DNA from: an uncultured Nitrospiraceae bacterium
GTDB lineage: Bacteria; Nitrospirota; Nitrospiria; Nitrospirales; Nitrospiraceae
Assembly (NCBI GenBank): GCA_963846575.1
Contig: CAWJWJ010000002.1
Coordinates: 2,048,001-2,112,000 of the forward strand
Reading direction: 5' to 3'
Length of the DNA: 64,000 nt
Each line of letters begins with the position of its first letter. Positions within the stretch are counted from its first letter, which is position 1. Of this stretch, positions 31,205 to 61,128 are shown in pieces. The notes under the pieces were generated by a model. That model ran no database searches and was not told the origin of the DNA. It was given only the letters and a program-made list of their open reading frames with translations. The translations under genes and the position numbers were made by a program.

Positions 31205-33699
<2,495 letters not shown>

Positions 33700-35761: not shown

Positions 35762-35837
35762 GCCGAGGTAGCTCAGTTGGTAGAGCACAGCCCTGAAAAG
35801 GCTGGTGTCGACAGTTCGATTCTGTCCCTCGGCACCA
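35762..35837 (+). tRNA. tRNA-Phe (GAA), integration target
   Basis: GCCGAGG/CCTCGGC stem, CAGCC-CT-GAA-AA-GGCTG, GTTCGATTC, ACCA end. Confidence 0.97.
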
Positions 35838-37005
35838 CAAATCGCGCACTTAGAGATTGTTCTACGTAGGATGGTGGCACCTCAGTGGCAGTAAGTGGCA
35901 CCTCAGAGGCATTTACACCATGGAGGAGAGCATCACTGAACGACTCCAACCGAGTGACCGCATCGCGCAATCGACCGTCCCAATTGTGAATGTGATACTT
36001 CGCTGAACCAGGAAGCGGCTCGCCTTTGAGGGTCTGAATCACAGCATAGTCCACACCACATTGCATCAGCCAGGTGGCGAAGGTGTGTCGCAGATCGTGG
36101 AAGTGCAGATCATAAATCCCGGCTCGCTCACATGTTTTCATCCAACTATGCTTGAAGGAATTCCCATTCTTCCATTGTCCAAAGAATCGCCCGCCAATCC
36201 GTGATAGTCCTCCGAACAGCGCTTCGTAAGCCAAGCCATTAAGAGGAATCGTTTTAGGAACCCCCTTGATCTTCGTGCGGCCCGGCGCCGGCGCCATCCA
36301 CCACCCGTCTCCCCTCTGCATCAGCCATTCTTCATGAGTCTCAATGAGCTTGTTCTCGCGCAAACCAATTTGGAGCGCCGCCATGATGAGACGCCATACT
36401 TGTGGCGAGGCAGCGGCCCTAAGTTTCAATAGTTCCCATCCTTCCAGCACGCGCTCACGTTTCACGTACTCAGGCACCGGAAGCCGCTTGAGCCGATTCT
36501 TATCCAGCCGATCCATGTCCACAGCCAGATTGAGCACGGCCATTAATACCGCACATTCCCGCTCGATCGTTCCAGCCGCGACCGGTCGACGGTTATCTGC
36601 CGGACCCGTAAGATCCGCACGACGTTTTTCCAAATAGGTCAATCCGTCCTCAAGGCGAATCTCAGTAAGTATTTTCTGTCCGAAATAGGGAATGATGTGC
36701 TTCGTCAGAATGAGCTCATTTCGACCGTCATTTGTTGGCCGCTTCGCTTTTAAATACTGCAGGTAGATTGGAATGAAAGCCGAAAAGGTGATGTCCGGCT
36801 GGTCAGCGAAGTGAGTCGTTTGAGTGGGTAAATGTACCGGTTGCGCCGTGTTGGCGTGTATAGCGGTGATGATTTGAAGGGCAGCTTCCCGTTCCTGGTC
36901 AATGGAAAGGTTGTATCCAAGGACAGGCCTATAACGAGCACCACGATACCAATATGTGAGAACCGAACGAGTCTTCCCGGAGGTTAGGATGCGCCGAATG
37001 TTCAT
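35773..37005 (-). CDS. Tyrosine recombinase/integrase
   Basis: GLR, TK, HFHDLRHTFATWL; likely start ATG 37005; 3' end runs through the att core. Confidence 0.9.
   Translation of the reverse strand: MNIRRILTSGKTRSVLTYWYRGARYRPVLGYNLSIDQEREAALQIITAIHANTAQPVHLPTQTTHFADQPDITFSAFIPIYLQYLKAKRPTNDGRNELILTKHIIPYFGQKILTEIRLEDGLTYLEKRRADLTGPADNRRPVAAGTIERECAVLMAVLNLAVDMDRLDKNRLKRLPVPEYVKRERVLEGWELLKLRAAASPQVWRLIMAALQIGLRENKLIETHEEWLMQRGDGWWMAPAPGRTKIKGVPKTIPLNGLAYEALFGGLSRIGGRFFGQWKNGNSFKHSWMKTCERAGIYDLHFHDLRHTFATWLMQCGVDYAVIQTLKGEPLPGSAKYHIHNWDGRLRDAVTRLESFSDALLHGVNASEVPLTATEVPPSYVEQSLSARFVVPRDRIELSTPAFSGLCSTN
35791..35843 (+). repeat. attL: 53-bp direct repeat (3' half of tRNA-Phe + CAAATC)
   Basis: Identical to 61076-61128. 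Confidence 0.93.
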
Positions 37006-37009
37006 GGCG

Positions 37010-37276
37010 TTACCTATGACGAGACAGTATAAAAAGTGGATTCCGATGGTAAACGTTGGCTGGACCGACGTCAACTGGCGCAGGAGACAGATCCCCGTGC
37101 CTGTTGCTGTTCACCTCCTGTCCCTCGGAGCGCATTCGAACCCACTTTTCCAAGTCTTCCTTCACGAACATCAGACGATGTCCATAGCGAACACGGGGAA
37201 TGTCAACACGTTGGTACAGTGTTCGTTTTGTGAGCCGCAAGAACTGAGCAGCTTCTTCGATGGTAAGAAGCGTCAT
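37010..37276 (-). CDS. Excisionase-like HTH (HTH_17) protein
   Basis: LLTIEEAAQFLRLTKRTLY...EDLEKW; immediately upstream of the integrase. Confidence 0.85.
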   Translation of the reverse strand: MTLLTIEEAAQFLRLTKRTLYQRVDIPRVRYGHRLMFVKEDLEKWVRMRSEGQEVNSNRHGDLSPAPVDVGPANVYHRNPLFILSRHR

Positions 37277-37519
37277 ACCTTCTCCTATCTACGCAGACAA
37301 TGAAGCCGAAGCATATTGGCTCTCAACTGGTCTGATTCAACCGGAAGTCTATCGACATCCATTCCCCCCCATTGAAGCGCCCGCCGTTACGCCAGCTTGG
37401 GACGAAGATCGAGCCCCCATCGGGTGCGACCCGTGGCCGGCGGAGCAGGGGGTCAGGCCTTCCCGTCTGTTCGTCCAGGCCTGCCCGCTGCGAGAGCCTC
37501 GTGCCGCCTCCTTCGTTAC

Positions 37520-37549
37520 GCCCCACCCTTGGATTGTGAAGGGTGGGGC
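37520..37549. other. 11-bp-stem hairpin in the Xis-RadC intergenic region
   Basis: GCCCCACCCTT-GGATTGTG-AAGGGTGGGGC. Confidence 0.6.
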
Positions 37550-37577
37550 TAGAACATAATTTCAGAAGGAGGCGGAC

Positions 37578-38082
37578 ATGTCCGTTGATAGTTCTCTCGG
37601 TTCCTCGAACGCTGGACGGCCACTGAGCCCGACAGCCCGCTACGGCGTGCCTCGGTACCGTGTCACGCTTGTGCGCGAGGGCTGTGCCATTCCCGCGACG
37701 GAGTCCCTCACGACGTCGGAGGGCGCCGCGCAGCTCCTGTGTCCCCTGTTCGCCGGATTGGACCGGGAGCAGTTCCTGGTCTGCGGCCTCGACGCCAAAC
37801 ATCGACTCATTGGGATCAATGTCGTCTCCACGGGCTCGCTCACCTTGGCCATTGTCCACCCTCGTGAAGTCTTCAAACCGCTGATCCTGATGAATGCCGG
37901 GGCCTGGATTTGTGCGCACAACCACCCCTCTGGCGACATCACGCCCAGTCCCGGAAGATCGCGTCCTGACCACACGGCTGCGCGAAGCAGCTGATCTGTT
38001 CGGCATTCCGCTGCTGGACCATCTCATCTTCGCTGACGACCGCTACTACAGCTTCGCCGACCAGGGCTGGCCCGGCGCCTAG
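37578..38082 (+). pseudogene. radC: RadC-like JAB domain protein with +1 frameshift at ~37950
   Basis: DREQF, VHPREVFK, HNHPSGD.TPS | PED...LLDHLI in the next frame. Confidence 0.85.
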
Positions 38083-38207
38083 CGGAGCAGCCGCAACACC
38101 CAGGCCGCTCCGGCGGCTACCAATGCGAGACCGATCGCCGCCGTGCCCCAGGCGACCAGGTCGGTGGCCAACGCGTTCCCGATGTTTTGAATCTGTTGCG
38201 CCGTCAT
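38079..38207 (-). CDS. Second coat-protein-like peptide (42 aa), no signal peptide
   Basis: AAGGAG RBS; MTAQQIQNIGNALATDLVAWGTAAIGLALVAAGAAWVLRLLR aligns with the mature major coat. Confidence 0.7.
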   Translation of the reverse strand: MTAQQIQNIGNALATDLVAWGTAAIGLALVAAGAAWVLRLLR

Positions 38208-38254
38208 CCGTGCACTCCTTTGTCCGTGCCATTCTCATCCTGCCCTGTGCTGAG

Positions 38255-38284: not shown

Positions 38285-38296
38285 CGATGGGCTTTC

Positions 38297-38509
38297 CTAG
38301 CCCACAATCGCGCGCACGCGCTTAAAGGCGTAAATCGCCAATGCCACGCCGATCAGGGCCGTGGCCCACAGGAGCAGATCGGCCCGCACGGTGGCCACAT
38401 CCGCCGACACCGGAAACAACTGCGCCTGCGACAGCGCCGGGACGCCCAGGGCGAACACGAACGCCATGAGCAATCCCCCAAGCCCTTTGACCCAACCCCA
38501 TCCCTTCAT
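38297..38509 (-). CDS. Inovirus-like major coat protein (pVIII-like)
   Basis: 70 aa: signal peptide ending SQA, amphipathic segment, one TM, basic tail KRVR; AAGGAGG RBS; own terminator. Confidence 0.8.
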   Translation of the reverse strand: MKGWGWVKGLGGLLMAFVFALGVPALSQAQLFPVSADVATVRADLLLWATALIGVALAIYAFKRVRAIVG

Positions 38510-38600: not shown

Positions 38601-38705
38601 TCAGTGCTGAGGCAGAATCAGTTTGATAATCAGACCGACGGCAAACCCGCCGAGCCAGAAGATCGCCGTGAAGTAAGTCATCATCTCAATCGCCTGCGGG
38701 TCCAT
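38601..38705 (-). CDS. Small hydrophobic minor-coat-like protein (pVII/pIX-like, 34 aa)
   Basis: MDPQAIEMMTYFTAIFWLGGFAVGLIIKLILPQH; AAGGAG RBS inside the zot 3' end. Confidence 0.65.
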   Translation of the reverse strand: MDPQAIEMMTYFTAIFWLGGFAVGLIIKLILPQH

Positions 38706-39690
38706 AAAACACTCCTTCTCCGATCAGACGCATCGACCCCTCCTCGTAGACTTCCGACACGACGACGCCGTAGCGTCCAGTAATCTGAGCGGCCGTGAGG
38801 ATTTCGCCACTGTCCAACAAGTACCGCCACCCTTGACGGTTCGCCGAGGAGCCGGCGCCGCCAAGAATACGCACTGGGCGCTTCGGAACTGACGGTGTGG
38901 CAGCCGAAGTAGCAGACGCACCCAAGGGAGTCATGAGACTACCCGCCATCGACGCAGAAGCCGGCAAGAGAGTCCCCGTCGCGGTGACTCCAGTCGCCGG
39001 AACTCCCTTCGTGCTGCTTAATGACGACCAGGGGCGCCAAACCATGAGGGTGAGAGCAAACAGCCCTGCGGCAATGCCGATCGCCACCCGCGCCGACTTG
39101 AAGACGGTATGGCTGCGTTTCTCTTCCCTGATCGCCGCCGACGCATAGCTGGAATAGTAGGCGTAGATCGCCGGCGAGTAGGTCCCGACAAAAGCTCGGA
39201 TGGTTTCGTGGTCTTCGGGGTTCCCGCGTACCTTGCCCTGATACTTTTTCGCGAGACCCACAAAGGCCAGCTTGCGAAACTTCACCGTGGCTTCAATCAA
39301 TCGCGTCACGCCTTGCGACATCTGCCGAAAATCCTGACTCATGAGCAGAATATCCACGCCGTAATGCCGATGGGTTTCGAGCCAACGGAGGAGCCCCGGC
39401 TCGACTTTCTGCATGGACCGAAAGACGGTCTGGGCTTCGTCGATGATGACGGCCGAGCCGGGTTCGACATGTGGAAAGGCCTGCAGGACTTCCACGGAGT
39501 CTTTCCAGATCGTGATCTGTTGTTGGAGGGTCTCGAGTTCGATGCCGGTGAAGAGCGCCAGTCGATCCAGATAGATGCCATCGACGGCGATGTAGAGTCG
39601 CCGGCCTTGCCGCACCCAGGGCAAGAATTTCTCGCAGATCGCGTGATAGGACTTGCCCGAGCCCGGCACGCCTTCATACAGTTCGATCAT
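38686..39690 (-). CDS. zot: Zot/pI-like morphogenesis ATPase
   Basis: MIELYEGVPGSGKS (Walker A), VIIDEAQ (Walker B), HRHYGVDILLMSQ, one TM. Confidence 0.92.
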   Translation of the reverse strand: MIELYEGVPGSGKSYHAICEKFLPWVRQGRRLYIAVDGIYLDRLALFTGIELETLQQQITIWKDSVEVLQAFPHVEPGSAVIIDEAQTVFRSMQKVEPGLLRWLETHRHYGVDILLMSQDFRQMSQGVTRLIEATVKFRKLAFVGLAKKYQGKVRGNPEDHETIRAFVGTYSPAIYAYYSSYASAAIREEKRSHTVFKSARVAIGIAAGLFALTLMVWRPWSSLSSTKGVPATGVTATGTLLPASASMAGSLMTPLGASATSAATPSVPKRPVRILGGAGSSANRQGWRYLLDSGEILTAAQITGRYGVVVSEVYEEGSMRLIGEGVFYGPAGD

Positions 39691-39773
39691 CGAAGACTCC
39701 TCAGATACACCCAGATCCACAGCGCCAGAATTACCGTCCACGCATAGGCCCAGCCCATCACGATGGTGTTCAT
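39687..39773 (-). CDS. 28-aa hydrophobic peptide
   Basis: MNTIVMGWAYAWTVILALWIWVYLRSLR; ATGA overlaps with both neighbours. Confidence 0.6.
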   Translation of the reverse strand: MNTIVMGWAYAWTVILALWIWVYLRSLR

Positions 39774-40045
39774 GAGCCCCACCGGACGAATGGAATGGTT
39801 TGGAGCATGAATCGCGTCCCCATGGCGCTCGCCACGATGGCCAGCGCCTGACTCATGCCCGTCGCGCCCAGCACCCAGGCGTATTGATCCGGAATCACCG
39901 GCAGGGTGAGGCCTGCCGTGCCAAGGGTCGCGAGCGTGCTGTCCGCCACGGAGAGCACGGAATCCCAGATGCCCAACCCCCAATCGGTGAGCGAAAAGAA
40001 GAACTCCTGCAGCCAGCAATAGATCAGGGTCAGAATGGCGGTCAT
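39770..40045 (-). CDS. pVI-like minor coat protein (DUF2523-like)
   Basis: 91-aa hydrophobic protein ending GMSQALAIVASAMGTRFMLQTIPF; canonical position before Zot. Confidence 0.75.
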   Translation of the reverse strand: MTAILTLIYCWLQEFFFSLTDWGLGIWDSVLSVADSTLATLGTAGLTLPVIPDQYAWVLGATGMSQALAIVASAMGTRFMLQTIPFVRWGS

Positions 40046-41308
40046 GTGGTCTGGCCTCCTCCCACGAAGATGATGCGGTACGCGGCGAAGGAGGCAATGG
40101 CGATCACGAGCGTGCGGAGCACCGTGAAGAACCAGGCCCATTGATTGAAATCCACGTGCTGACTGCCGAAGAAGGCGGAGGGCAGCGCAATCACCGGCAA
40201 GGTTGAGGGCCAGGTCAGGGACTTGAGGAGATTCAGCGTACTGAGCAGTCCGCTCGTGGCCCAGATGGTTTGATGGGCTTGGAGGACGGTTCCGAAGGTC
40301 CGATTCTCATGTGCCCCGGCCGTACAGGATGTGGTGGCCTGTGTTTCTTCCTGTTGCGTCGTCGAGCCGTCGGGATTCTGGGTCGTCGTCGTGGTGGTCG
40401 TCGTGCTTTGCTGCTGGGTGTTCTGCTGCGGCGTACTGGCCGGAGGCGGGACGTTGTCGACGACGATGATATCCCCGGCAGGCACCGGCTTCGGTTTGAC
40501 CGTGGTCGGCATCTCACTCGGCGAAACCGGCTGCGAGACGGTGTTGTCCGCCGGTTGCGTCGTGCCCGTCGTCCCGACGGGATTCGTATGGGCTTCGATG
40601 GACTTCGGATCATTCGCTGGTAGTGCCTGACACATAGTTGGCCGCCTGCTGCTGAGTCGGCGGGGTGGAGGCGTCTTGCAACGGAGCCGGTTCGCCCGGA
40701 ATGCCTTTTCGGTGGCAGACATACAGACTGTGTCCGCCCACTGGCGGGCCGTTGACGAAGAAATTGCCGGAGAAGTACACGGCCGTGCTGACGCTGTGAA
40801 AGGGTCCGACCATCCAATCATGCTGATACTCTGAATCGACCGCACAGAGCGGGACATTGGTCGTGCTGAACTGAATGCTCGCGTTGGGATAACTGGGATT
40901 GCCGGGGGTATTGGTCCCGAGGCCCGGAAAGGTCTGGGTGCCGGCATTGCTGCTGGACACTTGCCATCCGCCCGGCGTCGAGGCTGCCGACTTGATGGCC
41001 GACAGGTCTGATGGTGAGTAATACATCTGGGCCAGCACTAAACCGGCCCCCACACCGAGTGCCGCCCAGCCGACTGGACCGGCGACCATGCGCACGGCCA
41101 ACGAGGCGGCCGAGGGAGCCACTGCTGCCGAGGCCACCTGACTCGCCATGGCGGACCGTTGTGCGGCCAGATAGGCAATCCGTTCGGCTTGGGCGACCAC
41201 GCGCGCATAGTGGGTCGTCTGCGCCACGGATTCACCCGGGGCGATGCACAGGGACACGAGCACTGTCCAGATGAGCCCGAGATACCCTGTCAACGAGATC
41301 AGCTTCAT
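40042..41308 (-). pseudogene. pIII-like adsorption protein with +1 frameshift at ~40628
   Basis: Signal peptide, Cys pair, P/T/Q-rich linker, C-terminal TM; NYVS|ALPANDPK joins the two frames. Confidence 0.75.
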
Positions 41309-41379: not shown

Positions 41380-41399
41380 CGGCCTTCCTCCCTCTGCCG

Positions 41400-41663
41400 T
41401 TATTTCAAGACTTCCAACCCGTACAGGTCGAAGAAGACCCGTCCGGTCTGTTCGAACTTCCGGACTTCGATCGAGACTTTCGCTTGCTTCCCCTCGGCTT
41501 GCTTGCAGGCCTCGATCAAGGGCATCTGATCGTCCGGAATCCCCAATCGAAGCACCCCCGGATCTCGGCCCTTCACATAGAGATCCACCGATCGGTAGAC
41601 TTTCCCTTCCCGACTTCTCCGCTCCACATAGCCCTGCACCGCCCCCTCCGCTTTGACTTGCAT
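41400..41663 (-). CDS. ssDNA-binding protein (pV/RstB-like)
   Basis: 87 aa, beta-rich with the S.EGKVY hairpin; AGGAGG RBS; canonical position after Rep. Confidence 0.7.
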   Translation of the reverse strand: MQVKAEGAVQGYVERRSREGKVYRSVDLYVKGRDPGVLRLGIPDDQMPLIEACKQAEGKQAKVSIEVRKFEQTGRVFFDLYGLEVLK

Positions 41664-41863: not shown

Positions 41864-42856
41864 TCATGAAACTCTAAGGACATACGGCGTCCCTCTCCTC
41901 CGTTCCTTCAGCAGGGCGTAGTGCTTCTGTTTCCATTTCTGGGTGCCGGCATAGATCAACTCCTTCAGGAACTGATCACCTCGGCAGGCCACCACCACGG
42001 CCAGCATCGAGGCAACGGATTGGGCGAGCCAGGCGGCCACGTCGTCCAGCCGTTGCTGAATGCGCTCGACCACGAGCCGGCAGCGCTTGAAGCCTTCGGT
42101 CAGGGCCTGCCACCATCCCAACAGCGGCGCCCGGTATTTTTCGTACGATTCGGCCTCTCGCGTGGTCTCTCGGAAATCGACATAGGAGCGCAAGACGCCC
42201 ACCATAAAGGCCCGCCAGTCTTCGCTATCCAGCGTCAGGAGGGCTTTCGCGCAAGCCTGAGCCCGATCCTGTTTAAATTCCATTTCCCACCGGACGCCGT
42301 AGGCGGCCGCGTCTTCCCGTTTTTTGGCCTGGAGTTCCAGCCGTTTGTCATAGACCCGCAGCATGCTTTGGCTTTCCCGGCTGCCGAAGTAGAGGGTTTC
42401 TCCGGTCCGAATGCCGTCACGAGGATTGGAGGCCTGGATCACTTTGAATTGCTTGGACCGGCTGACGACTTGTCCGGCCTCGACGGCCTGCCGGACGGTT
42501 TCAACTGCGACCGTGGCCTCCCGGTCGTCCAGGGCCACGTCCGTCCGAGTCACATGGCCTTTTTGAGCGAAGATCCACGCGAGGACCGTTTTCAGCTTGT
42601 TCTCATCCCACTGGGAGATAATTCCGGCGGAGAGATCCACATGGACTTCCTTCGGACTGCGAGGGGCACCCGTCCCCAGTTTCCCGACGCCGGTCTTGCC
42701 CTGCGTCATGAGCTTCGCCACGGGATAGCCTCGAAAGCCGGTCTCACTCTGGAACCAGTCGCCCCCAATCGTCTTGATCACCTCGTCCACGTCAGCCTTC
42801 GGGAGTGTGAACGCCAGCCAATCGATGGTCTGAGTGAACCCTCCTGGACCTGTCAT
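41864..42856 (-). CDS. Rep_trans rolling-circle replication initiator (RstA/NicK-like)
   Basis: IDWLAFT, TRTDVALD, TLYFGSRES, LRVYDK, RWEME. Confidence 0.9.
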   Translation of the reverse strand: MTGPGGFTQTIDWLAFTLPKADVDEVIKTIGGDWFQSETGFRGYPVAKLMTQGKTGVGKLGTGAPRSPKEVHVDLSAGIISQWDENKLKTVLAWIFAQKGHVTRTDVALDDREATVAVETVRQAVEAGQVVSRSKQFKVIQASNPRDGIRTGETLYFGSRESQSMLRVYDKRLELQAKKREDAAAYGVRWEMEFKQDRAQACAKALLTLDSEDWRAFMVGVLRSYVDFRETTREAESYEKYRAPLLGWWQALTEGFKRCRLVVERIQQRLDDVAAWLAQSVASMLAVVVACRGDQFLKELIYAGTQKWKQKHYALLKERRRGTPYVLRVS

Positions 42857-43140
42857 TTCTTCCCCCTTGCCTTCTTGGCGATAGACGCCCCCGTCTTACC
42901 AAGTCGGGGGCTGGTCGGCTGCGCGCGCCGCCGGCTGACGCCGCCGGTCGTGCGCAGGCCGCCCGCCAAGCCGAGTTCGGTGAGTCCGTTGAGCCGCATC
43001 GCTTCGCGGACCTTTTCGAGATCAAAAAAGTACATTTTGCAAAACCGCTCATAGGGAATACGGCCGGTGCGATAGGCGCGTCGTATGGTCGAGGGATGCA
43101 CCGCAAACGTGTCGGCTAATTCCTTCGTCGTGAGTAACAT
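42853..43140 (-). CDS. Xis/MerR-like HTH DNA-binding protein
   Basis: LLTTKELADTFAVHPSTIRR...GRIP...FDLEKV; AAGGAG RBS; ATGA overlap with rep. Confidence 0.8.
   Translation of the reverse strand: MLLTTKELADTFAVHPSTIRRAYRTGRIPYERFCKMYFFDLEKVREAMRLNGLTELGLAGGLRTTGGVSRRRAQPTSPRLGKTGASIAKKARGKK
42887..42911. other. Candidate double-strand origin hairpin for Rep_trans
   Basis: GCCCCCG-N11-CGGGGGC about 30 bp upstream of rep. Confidence 0.5.
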
Positions 43141-44023
43141 GCGTTGAATCGCTCCTTGTTCAACATGGTGAGGACACTACGTGAGTTGAAGCTCGTGGGG
43201 AACTATGCGTATGCATGCGTATGTGCGCTTATATGCGCTTTGGTGTGCTCTGGTGAGCACCGATCATCCTGAAGTGTTACATCCCGCCCAGATTCAGGAC
43301 GCATTTAGCGGGATGTCATGCAGAAAAGACCAATAGGCGTGGGTAATAGAAACGATCAGTTTGGGATATGGAAGAGCGGATATCTTCACGAATGGACTGG
43401 AATCAGTCGCAATGAACCATCAATGGACCGCAATGGAGGGTACGTCTCTGGTGAAAGAACCGAAGGGAAATAATGGCTCAGGAGAATTAACGACAGAGGC
43501 TAGGGCAAGTTGGCTCTAGCCGAGGCTGCTGAAGGCACACGTTGATGGCATCGCCTCATGTTTTGGAAGGGCGAGACATGTGCGTCGAGTGTGCTTCTTT
43601 TCCCTAGGAGAGCGACCTGGGGGCGGATGGCCGATCATATGCAGACATTGCAAGCGGGTAAACCGGGTGCGGATCTCTGACTGCAACCGGCTACCTGGAT
43701 GAGCCAGGCCTTCGCACTGTCGGAACTGCTATGCAAGCTATGCGTCAACATGCGCGATATCAGTGCTGAGAGAGGTGTGAACGGCAGGCCAGCATCACGC
43801 GCCCTGTGGCGGTGGGGAGGGTCTTGTCGGCGATTGGTCATGGCTGGGGAGCCTAAGACGTCAGCGTTCCGAGTATCCGGTTTCTTCGCGAAACGTGCAT
43901 CACACCGATCACGATCTCAGGGATTTTCCTAGTTGATCAAGAACGATCGTCGAAGCAGCATAAAATTACTAGCTAAAGGCGTCTGCTGTTTAATGGCAAT
44001 CATAATAGACATGGAATGGAGTG

Positions 44024-45487
44024 ATGATGTTTTTTCAACGAATTAAGACTCCTGGAATTGCCCACAACGCCTATCTGATAGGCACTGAGGGTGTTGGCAT
44101 CCTCGTGGATCCTCGGCGAGACATAGACGAGTATGTGACCATCGCACGCAAAAACAAACTGGCGATAAAGTATGTATTTGAAACGCATCGTCAGGAAGAT
44201 TTTGTGCTTGGGTCTGCCACCATTCGCCAACTGTGTGGCGCAAAGATTGTGTCGGGCAAGCATAAACTTTTTGCCCATAGCGACCTGCGCCTCGCGGACG
44301 GAGCGCAGCTCGAGATTGGAGAGCTCCTTTTCCGCTGTCTCTACACTCCCGGACACACGCCCGAGAGCGTATCATACGCGGTGTATTTCCAGGACAAACC
44401 TGAAATCGCCTGGGCTGTTTTTACGGGGGATGCCTTGTTTATCGGTGAGGCGGGCCGAACGGATCTTCCCGATGTCAACAAGACTGCCGAGAACGCGGCA
44501 ATTTTGTACGACAGCATCCAGCAGAAGATTCTGCCGCTGGGTGATCAAACCCTTCTCTACCCGGCCCACGGGGCAGGGTCAGTTTGCGGGGGAAACATTG
44601 CTAACTACGATCAATCGACCCTCGGCTTGGAACGCCGTTATAACCCCGCCTTCACACAGTCCCGGGAAGAATTTGTCCAACTCAAGCTGAAGGAGCGTAT
44701 TCCCCGTCCGCCCTACTTTCGTTTAATGGAACGACTCAACCTGAAGGGGGGCCTCGCGTTGAGCAAGGATCCCGACACCATTCCGAGTCTGTTGCCGAAG
44801 GATTTTGCGCAGGAATCTGCAAAAGGCATCGTGATCGACACCCGGCTGCCCGAGGCATTCGGCGGCGGCCATATCCCAGGCTCCTATAGCATCTGGCTGG
44901 ACGGACTGCCAGTGTTTGGCGGGTGGATTGCCGACGACAAAGTTCCGGTCTACCTGGTGCTTGAGCAGCCAACTGATGTGAAAGAGGCAGCTCTGCATCT
45001 CCAACGCATCGGGGTCGACAATATCCGTGGCGTCCTCGCCGGTGGATTTGAAAGGTGGCGTGACGCAGGGCTTGAGATCTCCATGTCTGGCACTCTCAGC
45101 GTCAACTCTAATGCCTTGCAAGACGAGAGGACGTCGATCCTCGACGTGCGCGAAATCACCGAGTTCGAGGAGGGGCACATACGTGGCTCGCGACACGCCT
45201 ATGTCGGCTTTCTTCCCGAACTGGGGGCCATCGAGCGTCAACTCGATCGGAACCAGGCTGTCGCGGTCACTTGTAGCGTCGGGCATCGCGCAAGTCTCGC
45301 CGTCAGCATGCTTTTGCGTATGGGCTTTACCAGGGTGTTCAACATGCTTGGCGGGATGACCGCCTGGAAAAAGCTTGGAAAGCCGGTCGTAACTGGGTCC
45401 GATACAACGCATACGCTGGATCGGAAGATCCTCCAGAAAGGCACCAGCAACGAAGCGGCGGCAACGGCCCTGCGGGCAAGCATATGA
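44024..45487 (+). CDS. MBL-fold persulfide dioxygenase-rhodanese fusion (CstB-like)
   Basis: ETH, PGHT, TGDA, PAHGAGSVCG; Cys-less rhodanese-like domain, then a rhodanese domain with CSVGHR. Confidence 0.85.
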   Translation: MMFFQRIKTPGIAHNAYLIGTEGVGILVDPRRDIDEYVTIARKNKLAIKYVFETHRQEDFVLGSATIRQLCGAKIVSGKHKLFAHSDLRLADGAQLEIGELLFRCLYTPGHTPESVSYAVYFQDKPEIAWAVFTGDALFIGEAGRTDLPDVNKTAENAAILYDSIQQKILPLGDQTLLYPAHGAGSVCGGNIANYDQSTLGLERRYNPAFTQSREEFVQLKLKERIPRPPYFRLMERLNLKGGLALSKDPDTIPSLLPKDFAQESAKGIVIDTRLPEAFGGGHIPGSYSIWLDGLPVFGGWIADDKVPVYLVLEQPTDVKEAALHLQRIGVDNIRGVLAGGFERWRDAGLEISMSGTLSVNSNALQDERTSILDVREITEFEEGHIRGSRHAYVGFLPELGAIERQLDRNQAVAVTCSVGHRASLAVSMLLRMGFTRVFNMLGGMTAWKKLGKPVVTGSDTTHTLDRKILQKGTSNEAAATALRASI

Positions 45488-46083: not shown

Positions 46084-46130
46084 AGAAAGCCGGCAACCAG
46101 TGGACACAAGTGGCTATCCCAACTGAGCCT

Positions 46131-46658: not shown

Positions 46659-46714
46659 CCGGTTGACCGAATTTTCAACGTGTATGGTGCTGTAGCCGAA
46701 CCGAGGAGTGAGAC

Positions 46715-51249: not shown

Positions 51250-51416
51250 TTTAACTAGTGCTTGTTGACGCGTAACCATCCGCGACCTGCCAGGCTAGCG
51301 TCTATCTCGAGCGCTGTAGTATTAGTCATCGGAGCGAGAGCCCGAATCCTTTTCTGATTACCATGCCCTAACCGAACGACAGGTCAAAAAACTTCTTAAT
51401 CCACCGGGAGGCAAGA

Positions 51417-51929
51417 ATGGGAACAAAACTAGCATTGGCAGGCATGGCATTTGGTGCAATCGGTCTACTCGCGACGAGTGGGCAGGCAGAGACGCCAACG
51501 AAATCGTCGCCTGCTGAGGGTTTCACCATCCATGTGATCGCACCACATAAATTCGAGGATGGAACCGTACATGGTCCCTATCACCATTATTGCAAGGGAA
51601 TTTCACCAGAGATACTACAGTGCTTACTCTTTGAGTCCACGGAACCCAATGCAAAACTAACCGATGTGGAGTACTTCGTCGCCAAAGACCTCGCGAGGAA
51701 AAGTGTTTCCTTGGAAACCTGGAACAAGTATTACCATGACCATGAGGTTGAAATTGCCACAGGCCGCGTTCAGGTCTTGGATGTTCCTGAGGATAAAGCC
51801 AAGGAAATCGCCGCTGCGGCTGCCAAAACAGATGGCATCATCTTCCATCTCTGGCCAGATGGAGCAAAGGCGCCGAATGGAACGGTAGGACACCCTCAAT
51901 CAACCGGACATAAAGAGCGCACCCAGTAA
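51417..51929 (+). CDS. Exported DUF1264/OBAP-family protein
   Basis: HHYCK...QCLLF, VEYF, YHDH..EI. Confidence 0.8.
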   Translation: MGTKLALAGMAFGAIGLLATSGQAETPTKSSPAEGFTIHVIAPHKFEDGTVHGPYHHYCKGISPEILQCLLFESTEPNAKLTDVEYFVAKDLARKSVSLETWNKYYHDHEVEIATGRVQVLDVPEDKAKEIAAAAAKTDGIIFHLWPDGAKAPNGTVGHPQSTGHKERTQ

Positions 51930-51943
51930 GCAGCCGTAATGAC

Positions 51944-51981
51944 AGAGCGGGGAGCGTAAGTTGGTAGGCGCTCCTCGCTTT
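51944..51981 (+). terminator. Putative terminator hairpin
   Basis: AGAGCGGGGAGCG...CGCTCCTCGCTTT just after the stop. Confidence 0.45.
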
Positions 51982-52079
51982 GTCCATCGATCAAGATTCT
52001 CACGTTTGAGCCCTCGTAAAGATTGTTCACCAGTCGTTTATGTTGTGCATGCTGAGAATGAATCTTTCACCATCACATC

Positions 52080-52823
52080 GTGAAGGTAGCTATAAACCTA
52101 GAACGGCATCTGGAAACCTTTGGTCGCAATCGACTGGGTCATAGACCAGTTCGTCAGTGGGCAGTCTTGTTGATCTTGGTTGGTCTGGGAGCCCTGACCA
52201 CAAGCGCACAGGCAGAATGGTCGGCTATCACCGAGGCAAAATCACTTTACACAACCGATGCATTCCAGTTTTCCAATGCGAGGACGATTGCGACTGAGTG
52301 AAGATCCAACCTAACCCGCTGGCGTGGACATCGGGAAGTCGGAGGATGTTATTTTTCAGCCGGCGCTTGAACTGGTTCGGTCGTCATCCTCCTTCTTGGG
52401 TCCCAATGAGGTGGCTTTTAAAGCAGAAGGTTCCATTTATACAAACAATCCGATTTTAACCATGGCGACTACCGTGGTCAATTCAAGCAGTCGCTGACGC
52501 CTCAGACATCGCTGTTAGTCCGATACCGCTATCTGCCGAACCTGTTTCTAGGGCCAAATTTTGAGCATCGCACTGGGGAACGCCTCCTTGAGCAGGAACG
52601 GGTGACATCCCATCATTGGCGGAACTTTACGGGCGACCTGATGGGGGACACCCATGAAGGTCGGCAAGATGAAACCAATCAAGGGATAGCCGAGCTCCTG
52701 TATCACCTGACAGAAGCAGCAGGCCTTACGTTAGGATTTCAGCACACCCAGCGGACCTCGACGAATGCCCTCAGGGGATTTAATGACACCATCGTAGCTG
52801 TGGGAGGCCAGTATAGATTTTAA
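52080..52823 (+). pseudogene. Fragmented outer-membrane beta-barrel protein
   Basis: Signal peptide (AQA-EW), several broken frames, C-terminal GGQYRF signature. Confidence 0.6.
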
Positions 52824-53469
52824 CTCGGACCAGACACGAAGCATGGGAAGAAATAACAAATTAAGCCACTATCAGTGCTAACCGCTGTTTCGCGGCGCAA
52901 GCTTTTTTCTCGGGCACTACAGGTTATGGTGGCAATGCCATTTGCTCCAATTCTATCTATTCCTGGGTGTGGAGGCACCAGGCTATCCCGGGTTACGAGG
53001 GCCTGACACTTGATGCTACGCAAGGTCGGTCCTCGACATCTGAAGACTCCCATGGACCGGCTGACGACCTGAATTACACCTAACGATCAATTCCTCGTTC
53101 ACTCGCATAACCACATCCCTCAGATCGCATAATCTTTGGTATCTACGGGTTGAAGGCGCTGCCCTGAGCCCCTCACGTTCACTTTCTTGCCACGCATGTT
53201 CTGCCGACAAGCGCCATGAAATCGGAGGACATGGTAATGATCACCGTGCTCCCCTGAAATCTCTCATCACCTCAATTACGGATGTGGCTTATGATGTGTA
53301 AGGGGGATCGGACTTGTGGTGGTGCGACCTCGGACGGCACCGAAGGTTCGGCTGAACTAGGGAATGATATAGCTTCTCACGCATGGCGTGTGTAGCAATA
53401 TAAGTGGCATGCAAGAGACCCCGTCTGGGAATTGCTCCCCTCTTAGCCATTTAGAAAGCGAGGTTCATC

Positions 53470-54264
53470 ATGCGATACGAGGCACAACTGGCTTTTTTCA
53501 TCATAATAGCATTGGCCTTTCCGGCATGTGCGGCACAAGTTGAGCCAAAGGTCACACCAGCGGGTGACGCCAAAACCATGAAAAAGTCAGCTCTTGAAAT
53601 GGGCGCGCATGCTCTTCAAACACATGAGCCGATTGAACAGTTCGGTGTCTATCTAGTGGGATTTCACGCTTACAAACATGACCCGGCTCAGCAAATGACT
53701 GCTCATCATTTTTGCAGGCCGATCAATGAAGACCTGGCTCAATGTGTGCTGTTTGACAGCAATACAGCACAGGCGAACCTCAATGGCATTGAGTACATTA
53801 TTTCCGAGAAACTCTACGAGCAGTTGCCCCCAGCCGAACGGCCCTACTGGCATCCCCATAACCATGAGATTCTGTCAGGCACTTTGATCGCGCCGGGGCT
53901 TGCGGACGCGGCTGAACATGCCTTCCTTAAAATGTTTATGAACAGCTACGGGAAAACCTGGCATACCTGGAGGACCGGCATGTTCGGCCTGCCGCAAGAC
54001 TGGCTTCCACTGGGAGATCCTCATTTAGCCTGGTCGTTCAACCACGAAGGCGAGGCGAAGGCTGGGCTCATTGAAAAGAGGGATCAGGAGATGCAAATGA
54101 ACTCTGCCGAGAAGCATCGCCAACGGCAAGATTTTGTGAACCTGGCGCACCCACAGGAAGGTGTGAACGCCATCTCAACTCAGTTTCCTGGTCCGATTCG
54201 CTCGATCCCCGGCGTCATCGACAAGAGCTCCCAGCCGGGAAACGATCAAGGACATGGTAAATAA
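53470..54264 (+). CDS. Exported DUF1264/OBAP-family protein
   Basis: AHHFC...QCVLFD, GIEYIISE, WHPHNHEI, YGKTWHTW. Confidence 0.88.
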   Translation: MRYEAQLAFFIIIALAFPACAAQVEPKVTPAGDAKTMKKSALEMGAHALQTHEPIEQFGVYLVGFHAYKHDPAQQMTAHHFCRPINEDLAQCVLFDSNTAQANLNGIEYIISEKLYEQLPPAERPYWHPHNHEILSGTLIAPGLADAAEHAFLKMFMNSYGKTWHTWRTGMFGLPQDWLPLGDPHLAWSFNHEGEAKAGLIEKRDQEMQMNSAEKHRQRQDFVNLAHPQEGVNAISTQFPGPIRSIPGVIDKSSQPGNDQGHGK

Positions 54265-54343
54265 CGCATCGCGCCGAACCAGGCCAACGGCAACTTAATC
54301 GGTGATACGCCAAGCCGAGGGACATCAAAGAAGGACTCAAGCG

Positions 54344-55876
54344 ATGAGCCGGGCCGCCCTGCGGACTAGCCATAAAATTCTCGAAGGGTCTAAACGGCGT
54401 CCAAACTCCTTTGAGAGTCGTTCCCGAGAGGCACTGCCTCTTAATTCATTTTCTCTAGTGTTAGTACTCAGTCGAGGTAGCCAAGCGACGGGCGTGCTTT
54501 CTGCTGTATTTATCTTGACGATGACTCTCCAGGCCTTGGGTCAAGAGCTTCTTCAAAGAGAGACCGAGAAAGGTGGGAAGGCCCCGGAGTTTAAATACAA
54601 TCTCGGTTTGTACAAGCCAGACTATGGCATTTATGACGAGATCCTGGAGCGAACGGAACCTGGGCCCCAGTCATTGCGCGAAGCAGTCAATATGCCGACG
54701 TGGCTGATTGTGGGGGGTCAACATCGCACGCGCTATGAAACACTGGATGGACGGTGGCGAGCCGGTGAACTGGGGAGCGACCAGCAGATCGCTCAGCGCA
54801 CGCGGCTCTTTCTCGGCATCCAGGACATTCTTGATCCTCTTCGCCTGAACGTCGAATTACAAGATTCTCGAGCACAGTTGACGGATTCAGGCTCATTCAT
54901 GACGCAACATCATGTCAATAAGACCGATGTTCAGCAACTTCATCTGGACTTGTTTTCGACTAACTTTTTGGGGACGGAGCAACCCACCGTGCTCAGCGTC
55001 GGGCGCATAAACATGGACCTAGGTCGCCGTCGCTGGGTGGCCCGGAACGAATTCCGTAACACGACTCAAGCTTTTGATGGGGTACATTGGCACCTGGGAG
55101 ATGAAAAAAAATGGCACGTACGAGCCTTTCTGACGGAGCCCGTCCAAATTCTCCCTGAGCGAGTAGATAAGGTGGCTCCTGAGCAACCAACGACATTGTG
55201 GGGCCTATATCTCGAATCACGACAACTCTCTTGGCTCCACATGGCATTTCACTACTTCGGGCATCGCAGCGACGGTCCCCATCGCGACTTTGAAATGCTG
55301 GGAGCTATGTTTTTCAGGCCTGGAGGCGAAGGTAAGTTCGAATATGAGGTCGAGTCGTCGTATCAGTTTGGCGATATCGGTTCTCCCGGAGGATTTGAAC
55401 ACTTTCAACATGGGGAAATCGGATACACCTTCGCTGCGAAGTGGAAACCGCATGTCTTGCTAAGGTTCGATTATGCCAGCGGCGGACTGGACACCTTATA
55501 CGGCGCACGATCTTTTGAGTTAATGCCGACGGGAATCTTTCAGCCTTTCCAGCGTAGCAACATCCTATCGCCCGGATACCGGATCATGATCAGACCGAAA
55601 GAACAAATCACGCTGTTTACACAATATCGCGCGTGGTGGCTCGCCAACGACACAAAACCTTGGGTTGAGACTGGACTGCATGACCCGAGTGGGCAGTCCG
55701 GTAATTTTTTAGGACATACCGTCGAGGTGCGCGCACGCTGGGGCATTGTTGAGAATTTCTTTCTGCAAGGTGGCTATGTCCATTTCTCTTTCGGGGACTA
55801 TCCACGAAATGTACCAGGTGGGCCAAGTGGGAACCATTCCGACTACGCCTACATTTCGACAGAATTTATGTTCTAA
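54344..55876 (+). CDS. Alginate-export-family outer-membrane porin
   Basis: RTRYE, ELQDSR, NEFRNTTQAFDG, terminal Phe; start uncertain. Confidence 0.8.
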   Translation: MSRAALRTSHKILEGSKRRPNSFESRSREALPLNSFSLVLVLSRGSQATGVLSAVFILTMTLQALGQELLQRETEKGGKAPEFKYNLGLYKPDYGIYDEILERTEPGPQSLREAVNMPTWLIVGGQHRTRYETLDGRWRAGELGSDQQIAQRTRLFLGIQDILDPLRLNVELQDSRAQLTDSGSFMTQHHVNKTDVQQLHLDLFSTNFLGTEQPTVLSVGRINMDLGRRRWVARNEFRNTTQAFDGVHWHLGDEKKWHVRAFLTEPVQILPERVDKVAPEQPTTLWGLYLESRQLSWLHMAFHYFGHRSDGPHRDFEMLGAMFFRPGGEGKFEYEVESSYQFGDIGSPGGFEHFQHGEIGYTFAAKWKPHVLLRFDYASGGLDTLYGARSFELMPTGIFQPFQRSNILSPGYRIMIRPKEQITLFTQYRAWWLANDTKPWVETGLHDPSGQSGNFLGHTVEVRARWGIVENFFLQGGYVHFSFGDYPRNVPGGPSGNHSDYAYISTEFMF

Positions 55877-57367: not shown

Positions 57368-57734
57368 TGGCTCAGGGTCTTTGCCTGACGATCTTGCGCA
57401 CTGCGCGTTCTGTGACGCGTGGTGTTGAAACAGGCCGGCCATTGGTGCGGGAAGCGCGCAAACGGTCAGAAGGTATCCAGGTCCTCCGCGACACACCGGC
57501 AGCTGTCGTGAGTACAACATCCATATGCCGAACGGCAACGGATTCGAGGTCATGACTACATTTCTTCGCCAACTGCCCGTGCCGCAGCATGTTGCCATCT
57601 CGAGGCAATCGGGGACCGGTGGCCTGCTCAGTGCTGCGAAGCTGTTGAGCGCCACTCTCATTGTACCGAAACCTGTCAGCCTGAATGATCGCATTGGGTC
57701 GTGGAGACGGACTCGAGATGTTGTCATTTGCTAA
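57368..57734 (+). pseudogene. Degenerate single-domain response regulator
   Basis: VREA...EGIQ, IHMPNGNGFE, AIS, PKP spread over shifted frames. Confidence 0.55.
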
Positions 57735-59748
57735 CTTCACGCTACCAGACCTTACCGAAGCCCTGAGCAGGTTACGTCAGATGGGCCTTGGCGCACGCAG
57801 CATGGAAGAGACAGCGGATCGCATGGTCCGCTATGTGTATGAGAGCTTTGGGAACACGGAGACCGGCACGCGCTCCTGCCCTCTCGTCCGACTGTTCGTC
57901 ACGCGGCCCTATGGCACGCTGGAGGCAGGGCTTCAGTCGGCTGCCCGCAAGATGCTGGGTGAACGACCTGAGTCGCCGTCGCATAAATGCCTTGTGTTGC
58001 TCGGGACGGCGGGGGATGAGGCAGACTGGAATGATCGACACCGCTCCCATGGTCATCGGATATTTCCGCTGGTCAGTGAGCAGATCGTGTCGGATCTGCC
58101 CATGATTTCGCAGCTCATTACCCAGATGGGGATCGATGTGCGGTGTATGCTGGATCCCACGCCCTCTACGCTGCTGATAGCGGAGCAGAAAACCTATAAT
58201 GTCTTTCATGTCCCTGTGGCCCTTGAAAGTCCCTTCATCCCGGCGCAACAGAGCTTTGTCATCCGGTATCAAATCAAATCCGTGCTCGGCTTTGGCGGAC
58301 TCCTGCCTTCCGGGGAACTCTTCACGCTGATTCTCTTTAGCCGCACTTTGATATCGCAGGAGACGGCCGTATTGTTTAAGCCCTGCGCCCTCGCTGCCAA
58401 GGCAGCGCTCATGCACTTTGATAGCGACGATCGTGTCTTTGCCCGATCAGCGCAGCCGCCCGTGGCCACCTTAGGACCCTCGGCGCTCAGGCCCGACCAT
58501 GGGCGATCGGAATCGTTGGTTCTCGAGCAATTAATGGATCTCTATGAGCGCACGGTCCACGAGCAGGCGTCGCAGTTGAACCGGGCGTTAGAGGGGGCCC
58601 AGGCCCTGGCAACTGAATTGAATCGGACTGAACAACGGGAACGAAAAAGGCTCGCAATGGAGTTGCACGATCATCTCCAGCAGCTGTTGGTGCTGGGAAG
58701 ATTGAAACTCAGTCAAGGAAAGCGTGCGCTTGAAAGCACTTCTGCTGGGCCTAGGATTGTGGAAGAACTCGATGAGGTGCTCACGCAGGCTTTGACGTAC
58801 ACTCGCACCTTGGTTGCCGAACTGAGTCCACCGGTGCTTCTGGAACATGGCCTGCTCGCAGGGCTCACCTGGCTGGGCGAACAGATGCGCCAGCATCATA
58901 TCGCGGTCACCGTCGAGTGCACGCTTGAAGAGCTGCGTCTGCCTGAGGAACACGCGGTGCTCCTTTTTCAATCGGTGCGAGAGTTACTGCTTAATGCGGC
59001 CAAACACGCCGGTTCCAGTCACGCGACGGTGAGCGTTAACCACCGGAACGGTATGCTGCATATCGCAGTAGCGGATCAGGGGAAAGGCTTCGATCCGTCA
59101 CACGTGGCCAATTCGCCCTCGTCGGCCCATCTCTCCTCCAAATTCGGCCTTTTTTCAATCCGTGAGCGCATGCGGGCGTTAGGAGGTCGGTTCGAAATCG
59201 TCTCGGCAGTCGGCAAGGGAACGACCGGAGTTCTTGAACTGCCCGTTGCAGTACAGGCTCTGCCCCCCACGCCAGACTCTGTACTAGCTACAGGGGAACC
59301 TAACAACACTTCCCTAGCCAAAGGCGGTCTTCGATCACAGCCTCAGCTGTTCGGTCATGTGCGGGAGACTCTGGTGCGTGTGCTCTTGGTGGACGACCAC
59401 GCCATGATGCGGCAAGGGCTGAGATCAGTCTTAGAAGCCTATAGTGACGTCCATATCGTGGGAGAGGCCCAGAACGGGGAAGAAGCCGTGACCCTGGTGC
59501 ATAAACTAACTCCATCCGTTGTCATTATGGACATCAATATGCCCAAGCTCAATGGGATCGAGGCGACGGCACAGATCAAGTCTCAATTCCCGCACATTGC
59601 GGTGATTGGGTTATCCGTCAATGCAGAGGGCCCGAACCAAACGGCAATGCTGCAGGCTGGCGCCACCCGGCTGATAACTAAAGAGGCCGCTGTGGAGGAG
59701 CTGTATCGCGCCATTCAAGCTTCCATCGCAGCAACAGAATCTCAGTGA
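57718..59748 (+). CDS. Hybrid histidine kinase (GAF-like, HisKA_3, HATPase, REC)
   Basis: RLAMELHDHLQQ, RELLLNAAKHA, DQGKGF, FGLFSIRER, VDDH...MDINMP. Confidence 0.9.
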   Translation: MLSFANFTLPDLTEALSRLRQMGLGARSMEETADRMVRYVYESFGNTETGTRSCPLVRLFVTRPYGTLEAGLQSAARKMLGERPESPSHKCLVLLGTAGDEADWNDRHRSHGHRIFPLVSEQIVSDLPMISQLITQMGIDVRCMLDPTPSTLLIAEQKTYNVFHVPVALESPFIPAQQSFVIRYQIKSVLGFGGLLPSGELFTLILFSRTLISQETAVLFKPCALAAKAALMHFDSDDRVFARSAQPPVATLGPSALRPDHGRSESLVLEQLMDLYERTVHEQASQLNRALEGAQALATELNRTEQRERKRLAMELHDHLQQLLVLGRLKLSQGKRALESTSAGPRIVEELDEVLTQALTYTRTLVAELSPPVLLEHGLLAGLTWLGEQMRQHHIAVTVECTLEELRLPEEHAVLLFQSVRELLLNAAKHAGSSHATVSVNHRNGMLHIAVADQGKGFDPSHVANSPSSAHLSSKFGLFSIRERMRALGGRFEIVSAVGKGTTGVLELPVAVQALPPTPDSVLATGEPNNTSLAKGGLRSQPQLFGHVRETLVRVLLVDDHAMMRQGLRSVLEAYSDVHIVGEAQNGEEAVTLVHKLTPSVVIMDINMPKLNGIEATAQIKSQFPHIAVIGLSVNAEGPNQTAMLQAGATRLITKEAAVEELYRAIQASIAATESQ

Positions 59749-60617
59749 GGAATACCAGTCAGCAGGTACGTTCTTGCCACGCCACCTCGAACCTCGGCAA
59801 ACGAGGATTTGCGCGTGTAGGTGATTGTGCATTGAATATTGGCCCGGCATTGTTTTGTTTAGTTAACACGTTGAGCTTGGTGTTGATAGTTTTGTGGTAC
59901 CGGGAAGGATGTTTACCCTCGAAGGGCCTCGACCTTTCTATTTGGGATCACTCGATTCCTCCAAATCACGTTCAGTGACAAAACAAGATGGTAAATGCAG
60001 GTTGGCGAGCGCGCCCACCTCGGCGCGCGGCGATGCGAAAGCATTGATGATGGTCGCTGCATTCCACGCACGCGTTTTGAGGGAGATATGGTGACACTGG
60101 TTGTCCGGTGAAGACCAGCCGACATGCAAGTCACTATCTCCGTAAGCACCGTGATCGTCGATCAGCTTTGACCGACAGCGGGCTGATCGTCATGTAGAAG
60201 AGCGGGTCGATCATGACACTCTCGGGATTGGTTTAGGTGTCTATACCGCCGCCTGGCTAGGGCTCCCTGAGCGTAATGTCTGCTAACGCGCGTGGGGATT
60301 TTCTATCCCCCTCCGTATCGGTGTGGAGAAGATGATTGCCGGTGGTTGCAACGTAGATTTGAGTCTGTCGAGTAGGATCGTAGCCGCCGAGCACAAGGTT
60401 GATTGTGATCGGTTGTGTAGCGGCGACGCCGGTGCCACGAGGACGAGCGTCGTGAGACTTTTGGTACGAACCTGGATAGCTCTTCCGACAGAGTTGTCTC
60501 GAAGGAGGCCAATGTCAGTCCGATGATCACTCACAACCGGACGCGATGGAAGTGAGAGCGGGATGTAATTCCTTAGCAGTAAAGGGAGTCTGCTTCACGC
60601 TCGCGTCGGCAATTTGA

Positions 60618-60923
60618 TCAGGTCGAGACGAGGGTGGTTCGGTTTTGCACGATGTGCCTCGTGACCCTATCCGGAAAAGTTCGCTCGGCCAGCCGCAACT
60701 CATAGGCTTTCTGCAAGTTCATCCAAAATTCAGCCGTGGTATTGAAAACCCAGCCCAGACGCAGGGCCGTATTGCCCGTAGTGCCCCGTTGCCGCTTAAT
60801 AATTGCCGTAATCGGGTTTGCCGGCACCTCTAATGACTTAGCGAGTGTATTGGCGTTGATAGGAAGATTAGCCGCCTTCATGAACTCTTCCCCCAAAATT
60901 TCTCCGGAATGCACCGGCCGCAT
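60618..60923 (-). CDS. higA: HigA-family antitoxin (orphan)
   Basis: MRPVH.GEIL.EEF, TALRL...F.TTAEFWMNLQ..YEL. Confidence 0.85.
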   Translation of the reverse strand: MRPVHSGEILGEEFMKAANLPINANTLAKSLEVPANPITAIIKRQRGTTGNTALRLGWVFNTTAEFWMNLQKAYELRLAERTFPDRVTRHIVQNRTTLVST

Positions 60924-61075
60924 GCCATTCTCCCTTCACCGATGGAAACCGACTTGAAGTTAGGTGCCACCAGTGGCACCTGCACCTGTAACCCTATGTA
61001 GTTTAAAGGCACACAATGTCATGATTTGCAACGCCGTTTCCCGCTATCATATTGATTTTCCACTGCTTTAGGCTC

Positions 61076-61128
61076 CCCTGAAAAGGCTGGTGTCGACAGT
61101 TCGATTCTGTCCCTCGGCACCACAAATC
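61076..61128 (+). repeat. attR: copy of the tRNA-Phe 3' half
   Basis: 53 bp identical to 35791-35843. Confidence 0.93.

Follow-up and report, generated by a model that had tools for sequence, protein, structure and literature searches.

A filamentous-phage gene module and 17.9 kb of cargo within one pair of tRNA-Phe attachment sites in a Nitrospiraceae genome

We analysed a stretch of 64,000 nucleotides (the window) from an uncultured Nitrospiraceae bacterium (assembly GCA_963846575.1, contig CAWJWJ010000002.1, positions 2,048,001 to 2,112,000), which contains an integrated element combining genes of a filamentous phage (inovirus) with a long block of non-phage genes. The 4.2-Mb genome carrying the window is called G000 and its contigs C1 and C2; other G- and L-numbers denote genomes and contigs of relatives. 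The element is bounded by an exact 53-bp direct repeat with a spacing of 25,285, the left copy being the 3′ part of a tRNA-Phe(gaa) gene. An earlier reading of the window from its letters alone (the sequence-only reading) had placed such a tRNA-Phe repeat around the phage genes and cargo; we located both copies, and the repeat occurs exactly twice across the genome.

The phage module occupies 7.3 kb on the minus strand, except for radC (plus strand), in the order helix-turn-helix (HTH) gene, Rep_trans, SSB, small transmembrane (TM) open reading frame (ORF), pIII-like, pVI-like, Zot, small TM ORF, coat, 42-aa TM ORF, radC, Xis and integrase (Table 1). The sequence-only reading had recognized integrase/Xis and an inovirus-like set of Rep_trans, SSB, pIII, pVI, Zot and coat, and had proposed profile searches of Zot and Rep; its gene calls held up in Pfam and PHROGs, in a structural model and among ESM Atlas neighbours. 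Zot matched PF05707 (E 1.3e-29) and phrog_197 (E 8e-46), as expected of an inovirus pI/Zot ATPase, Rep_trans was matched at E 3e-38 and the Ace-like minor protein pVI at E 2e-9, and the integrase and the HTH_17/excisionase protein were also confirmed. The named close relatives of Rep and Zot were mostly from Nitrospira, among them a Zot 89% identical in the cultured Nitrospira sp. ND1, and on this basis we regard the host as a Nitrospira. The 87-aa protein is, according to its predicted structure, an SSB: the model (pLDDT 92) has an SSB-type OB fold and matches SSB/PriB OB folds and an RstB-like viral protein. Neither the coat nor pIII had a Pfam or PHROGs match, and a PDB search of the coat returned none; we call them coat-like and pIII-like from their anatomy and their ESM Atlas neighbours. 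In the coat's neighbourhood 11% of members carried Phage_Coat_B, and in that of an intact pIII from a relative 26–43% carried Neisseria_TspB (Hofneiviricota). As for the short (30–90 aa) TM structural proteins that characterize inoviruses, the 70-aa coat and the 27-aa and ~24-aa ORFs are hydrophobic and the 42-aa ORF is conserved. Lying behind the major coat gene, this last ORF is highly conserved and possibly encodes a second capsid protein. The motif of the p7 ORF, read in the correct frame, was located and nearly invariant in 21 of 23 loci. The long hairpin upstream of Xis showed no covariation or compensatory change, so that its packaging role stays a guess.

Table 1. Features of the element and its borders (window positions)
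Feature	Position	Strand	Remark
tRNA-Phe(gaa), integration target	35762..35837	+	
Tyrosine integrase, 410 aa	35773..37005	-	Pfam/PHROGs
attL core, 53 bp	35791..35843	+	
Two direct GTGGCAC-containing repeats, putative integrase arm sites within attL	35874..35911	+	
Excisionase-like HTH_17 protein	37010..37276	-	Pfam/PHROGs
Conserved long hairpin, candidate packaging signal or single-strand origin	37504..37575	-	z -4.9 for 37400-37580
RadC-like gene, frameshifted in this copy	37578..37994	+	
42-aa hydrophobic ORF, candidate minor or second coat protein	38079..38207	-	motif in 29/30 module copies
Major coat protein-like, 70 aa: hydrophobic leader, TM helix, basic C-terminus	38297..38509	-	
27-aa TM ORF, pVII/pIX-like by size and position	38601..38684	-	
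Zot/pI-like morphogenesis ATPase, TM segment in C-terminal half	38686..39690	-	
pVI/Ace-like minor coat protein	39770..40045	-	
pIII/TspB-like adsorption protein, broken by frameshift near 40620	40042..41308	-	
~24-aa TM ORF, pVII/pIX-like, predicted start codon	41305..41379	-	
SSB, OB fold; putative gene V/RstB-like role	41400..41663	-	
Rep_trans rolling-circle initiator, patterns fitting catalytic motifs	41864..42856	-	
HTH_17-like regulator or excisionase, last gene of module	42853..43140	-	
GC hairpin ahead of rep, single, putative double-strand origin	42888..42910	-	
MBL-fold/rhodanese fusion, four Sulf_transp (YeeE-type) ORFs, YgaP-like	44021..48530	+	cargo
5'-nucleotidase-family protein, DsrE, two DUF1264, porin remnant, alginate-export-type porin	48556..55876	+	cargo
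Hybrid histidine kinase/response regulator	57685..59748	+	cargo
HTH antitoxin-like gene	60618..60923	-	cargo
Inverted GTGCCAC/GTGGCAC arm motif within attR	60964..60979		
attR core, 53 bp	61076..61128	+	
C-terminal remnant of older related integrase, outside element	61129..61424	-	directly after attR

The rest of the element, 17.9 kb (43141-61075), is the non-phage cargo that had been put at about 17 kb. Its first Sulf_transp ORF holds an in-frame stop (45844-45846). The earlier label "metabolic" does not hold for the family in general, since the cargo of relatives often consists of defence systems or Rhs/Tle1 genes. The block as a whole was present in 0 of 38 other genomes of the genus; relatives with the cargo but without the phage module, named in advance as evidence against a joint unit, were thus not encountered. 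A 3.7-kb sulfur cluster alone does recur in a few of these 38 genomes and in G000, at 88% identity in G024, 80% in G026, in G003 and as an own paralogue (78%), besides short paralogues. The paralogue of this cluster (44024-47790) lies at C2:1309583-1313346 beside tRNA-Pro(tgg), outside any module-bearing unit. Elsewhere in the cargo, a stretch of ~200 bp (57079-57274) without a Pfam match is repeated across many Nitrospira genomes, four times in G004.

Module and cargo very probably form one att-bounded recombination unit, judging from the structure of the ends. The GTGGCAC arm motifs occur as two direct repeats inside attL and as an inverted pair inside attR, and the attR side resembles that of two other Phe-site elements with unrelated cargo (60932-61122, 89.5% like G004b; 60944-61126, 77% like G020C3). 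For 20 sized elements of the genus, we scored the 150 bp inside the far att site against integrase identity. The 24 pairs with integrases at least 60% identical had a mean far-arm score of 112 (minimum 31); a control taken 1 kb deeper inside scored 16.6, and for the remaining 166 pairs the mean was 19 (maximum 51). Thus, arm similarity inside attR follows integrase similarity. The longest core fragment inside the element was 12 nt, no transposase or integrase was found among the cargo ORFs or 64 further stop-to-stop frames, and a hairpin search of the elements revealed no second origin that would permit a small circle. Because the arms are cognate, no longer core fragment exists and the cargo lacks a transposase, the far repeat is this integrase's own attR; arms in both repeats, together with the lack of an internal att site or transposase and the single origin-like hairpin, make the 25.3 kb one unit. 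In sequence, the element thus shares with integrative and conjugative elements (ICEs) a set of genes for site-specific integration and predicted excision, along with att ends that are cognate to them. The sequence-only reading had placed module and cargo within one att pair and had named an internal att or insertion sequence boundary as what would refute this; we looked for such a boundary in the cargo and found none.

The integrase frame runs through the att core (35773-35843), so that its tail would change on the excised circle, giving a predicted 423 aa as against 410 aa in the integrated form. The predicted circle tails of three Phe elements and of the metagenome contig L166 are of equal length and share a similar basic, Cys-containing end motif. 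Upstream of the element, tRNA-Ser(tga) is likewise followed by a piece of an integrase gene (window 32526-33111; C2:2080734-2081111). No clean empty attB was found, the tRNA-Phe sites of relatives being occupied by other islands or remnants.

The module is not confined to this locus. G000 has four copies, ~88% identical, at tRNA-Phe, -Arg, -Ala and -Lys, and Zot was matched in 18 of 36 same-genus relatives and in 55 of 244 genomes of the family (10 of 31 genera). We examined 50 loci, picked from the match lists with a preference for long contigs: four in G000, 26 elsewhere in its genus and 20 in further genera of the family. The gene order was kept in all of them. The 34 loci that could be sized (33 distinct) span 12.7–35.0 kb with a median of 22.0 kb, and none is near the size of the module; 31 of the 33 distinct elements exceed 15 kb and 21 exceed 20 kb. 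Four Ala-site sizes are based on a 12-nt core and a shared inner arm. The upper end of the range is censored, because nine of the 16 unsized loci hit a contig end and seven have no far att within ~33–38 kb. Integrases are tyrosine or large serine recombinases, depending on the site, and the module trees mix the integrase types. As had been anticipated, relatives, including the two other Phe-site elements, carry the same module with different cargo: that of nine relatives scanned included Hma, type II/IIG restriction-modification, Lamassu, Thoeris TIR, Rhs and Tle1-like lipases, and within G000 it comprises sulfur handling (Phe), copper resistance (Arg) or two-component genes (Ala). To judge from these trees and gene contents, integrases and cargo are swapped between elements, and the integrative inovirus-type element with cargo is a family-wide architecture beyond the reported range of 5–20 kb.

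Some of the elements deserve separate mention. Those of L047, L078, L063 and L077 hold Rhs cassettes and Tle1-like lipases, that is, interbacterial weapons as inovirus cargo. The 32-kb Arg element of G000 (C2:1319430-1351469), at the 5′ end of tRNA-Arg(tct), carries multicopper oxidases, CopB, an RND efflux set and a cation-efflux gene, and the 28-kb element at tRNA-Ala(cgc) (C2:434421-462835) has a large serine recombinase and a 12-nt core; these two have a 1.5-kb tyrosinase block in common (92%). The Lys-site element of G000 could not be sized because of the end of C2, whose last 600 bases are very GC-rich, unlike the rest, and possibly foreign or mis-joined.

Just before rep, every element with sequence there has one CCCCCG-N10-11-CGGGGG hairpin. 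Rep_trans/MOBT proteins nick in the loop of a GC-rich hairpin, as described in PMC9371924; the loop here reads GTAA as against CTAA of their nick sites (CT'AA). A rolling-circle initiator with Rep_trans motifs, a single origin-like hairpin with predicted nicking and an OB-fold SSB are all present, as in inoviruses. With a single origin, replication would have to travel the whole circle, and the rolling-circle replication proposed for it in the sequence-only reading is likely. We also estimated dN/dS (Nei-Gojobori, best-matching stretches) over 23 relatives' copies. The values were 0.093 for the coat, 0.085 for Zot, 0.045 for pVI, 0.045/0.112 for pIII, 0.062 for SSB and 0.061 for Rep, with RadC likewise within 0.045–0.11. 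By this measure the virion genes are under purifying selection, to be read as past constraint and not present activity, because the copies are related and recombine.

Movement of a complete unit is suggested by the tRNA-Lys elements of G004 and G016, which align over 29,257 bp at 99.98% identity. The alignment begins where the tRNA begins and stops shortly beyond attR; it contains a single internal SNP, and the attR cores differ at two positions. The hosts are 79% alike in the left flank and 70–73% in other stretches. The simplest reading of this alignment is a recent block transfer of the module and ~22 kb of cargo.

Taken together, these comparisons suggest long virus filaments that move whole gene islands between species. 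We give a probability of about 0.5 to the reading that the whole att-to-att unit is the genome of an integrative inovirus-type element and is transferred whole in filaments. Int and Xis would excise the 25.3 kb as one circle, with P′ arm, core, P arm, int and xis in an unbroken row; Rep_trans would nick the single hairpin and copy the full circle; SSB would coat the single strand; and Zot/pI with the coat proteins would extrude it through a host secretin. CTXphi-type phages use a host secretin, and G000 has two, which accords with the earlier remark that export would need one. Filament length follows the DNA and has no fixed limit, as established for Ff phagemids; from the rise per base of Ff and Pf1, a filament for 25 kb would measure 3.5–7 micrometres. 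In the recipient, Int would insert the element at the tRNA gene, and the slot between attR and the HTH regulator would serve as a cargo hotspot.

Several observations weigh against this reading. Relative to relatives, pIII and radC have one-base frameshifts here, which the sequence-only reading had missed, as it had the in-frame stop in the sulfur transporter, the three further module copies of G000 and the integrase remnant after attR. A long open pIII frame exists in 22 of 23 relatives' copies, and the frameshift may be decay or an assembly error. All four G000 module copies are lesioned, the other three in different genes. Since frame changes were found in 0 of 51 host orthologues, decay is likelier than a general assembly error, while a repeat-specific error is possible. 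The integrase, Rep, SSB, Zot, coat and pVI genes are intact in this copy, and the Arg copy has an open pIII frame. The present copy is probably defective alone, as its pIII frame implies, but could be complemented by the co-resident copies. G000 also has sisters without Zot or other virion genes, 6–12 kb long, at tRNA-Val, -Thr and -Arg(cct) (C1:845914-852318, C2:129172-141055 and C2:517588-527122), with an integrase, a Rep_trans ~50% identical, a like hairpin and, in one, a NikA-like gene; they are candidate integrated inovirus satellites or integrative and mobilizable elements (IMEs). Some elements (G033, G006C94, G159a) contain internal att copies or fragments, so accretion does occur. Among the loci compared, G004/G016 is the sole near-identical cross-host pair and could be an assembly chimera. 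The metagenome contig L166 counts in favour of the filament reading: its zinc-transporter cargo is followed by P′ arm, core and P arm and then by an integrase of 58% identity, and the 5′ half of the tRNA is missing. This attP-type junction may, however, be a circle or a tandem insertion, and it carries no link to Zot. Two kinds of search were also negative: attP-type patterns had 0 matches each in IMG/VR, and no circle or virion DNA of the element was seen in the sequencing runs, which were all contigs and held at most 13% of the element's words. Four runs mapped on 34500-46000 yielded relatives' module pieces, little cargo coverage and no usable junction; given contigs only and 13% of words in the best run, this mapping is evidence neither way.

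Alternatively, the unit could move whole by conjugation in trans, in the manner of an IME, with Rep_trans as relaxase and a passing type IV secretion system (T4SS), the filament genes serving small derivatives or another role. Rep_trans/MOBT proteins are relaxases in ICEBs1 and Tn916 and rolling-circle Reps are mobilisable, as set out in PMC5714925; the Rep_trans family and GC hairpin of MOBT IMEs are both present here, with a loop that differs from CT'AA. VirB4 (PF03135) was found in 4 of 39 genus genomes and PF02534 (coupling protein) in 9 of 39, and one of the Zot-less sisters has the NikA-like gene. We nevertheless consider this route unlikely, as profile searches found neither marker in G000 or in G004 and G016, the two sharers of the 29 kb, and as purifying selection has conserved coat, pVI, pIII and Zot in copies that carry cargo, with no small form found. 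Neither the element nor, by the PF03135 and PF02534 profiles, G000 has the T4SS and coupling protein of an ICE, and with no conjugation genes found within the element, the ICE half of the "inovirus-ICE hybrid" in the sequence-only reading is unsupported.

Equally doubtful is a build-up of cargo on elements already integrated, through tandem insertions into tRNA hotspots and loss of internal att sites. Most large forms would then be stranded in the chromosome, and the infectious phage would be a small one that has escaped sampling. Both tandem att arrays and remnants of integrases are indeed frequent, one remnant lying right after this attR, and the internal att copies and the lesions of all four G000 copies fit this scheme. 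The module alleles of three co-resident copies also cluster despite different integrases (100/99, coat-Zot-pVI tree), which implies recombination within the genome. However, none of the 46 loci with sequence past the HTH gene has an att copy in the first 5 kb there (in one locus just 3.7 kb were available), far arm and integrase are cognate, and the 29 kb moved as a block. Least probable is that the units are real but were shared across species by tailed-phage transduction, transformation or chimeric assembly, with filaments lacking cargo: there is a single near-identical cross-host pair and G016 is a 40-contig assembly, but identity starts at the tRNA start and ends at attR, the two-letter difference between the attR cores is what independent integrase insertions would give, and a chimera would require mis-joining at short repeats twice over.

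The element can also be compared with known systems. Integrative inoviruses of the Pf4/Pf6 type in Pseudomonas aeruginosa have genomes of ~7–12 kb and, as described in PMC7047154, share with the present element an own integrase, tRNA targets, excisionase, SSB, coat, minor coat, morphogenesis ATPase and replication initiator, as well as variable accessory genes and several elements per genome. Unlike the Pf phages so described, the Nitrospiraceae elements are 12.7–35 kb long with 5–27 kb of cargo, use tyrosine and serine integrases and have RadC in the module. CTXphi and CTX-I Vibrio inoviruses likewise have a Rep_trans initiator (PMC5714925), RstB-like SSB, Ace-like pVI, Zot and hypervariable defence cargo, but use XerC/D at dif; their hypervariable regions average 1.9 ± 1.3 kb according to PMC12715192, about one-tenth of the cargo here. 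The survey of Roux et al. 2019 (PMC6813254) gives inovirus sizes of 5–15 kb, or 5–20 kb in its discussion, and lists one Nitrospirae species, of 7,503 bp; our module agrees with its inoviruses in the pI ATPase and short TM proteins, whereas the 25.3 kb here and the larger elements of the family lie above its sizes. Thirteen IMG/VR contigs of 3.5–10.4 kb without terminal repeats encode this Zot, and four of them match only parts of elements that we sized at 12.7–19.4 kb. MOBT/Rep_trans ICEs and IMEs (ICEBs1, Tn916, ICESt3) resemble the element in integrase, Xis, Rep_trans, GC hairpin and island-size cargo, as described in PMC9371924, but it has a filament-assembly module in place of a T4SS and coupling protein, and the loop GTAA in place of CTAA. 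Finally, pDolos, a plasmid with a rolling-circle replicon that rides an inovirus (10.1101/2023.11.28.569023), offers a model for the Zot-less sisters; it is not integrated, and the element here, unlike pDolos, encodes its own virion genes. Our literature search turned up no account of inoviruses in Nitrospira, of 20-kb cargo in any inovirus or of packaging limits, although subscription papers and the Roux length table may contain such cases.

We tentatively propose, at somewhat less than even odds, that Nitrospiraceae have giant inoviruses of 13–35 kb or more, whose filaments, several micrometres long, would move whole islands between species without lysis or conjugation, with the Zot-less Rep elements as integrated satellites; the islands would include restriction-modification, Lamassu, Thoeris, Rhs, and copper-resistance or sulfur clusters. 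If this is true, the ceiling of the 5–20 kb reported for natural inoviruses would have to move up, the median of this family being 22 kb, and inovirus detectors would cut such genomes at the module edge. The element would also provide a native integrating vector of 25-kb capacity, an asset for work on bacteria as difficult to manipulate as these. Non-lytic extrusion would then be a route for island-scale gene transfer, and a vehicle for defence and metal- and sulfur-handling genes among wastewater nitrifiers, few of whose genomes have the VirB4 marker (the 4 of 39 noted above).

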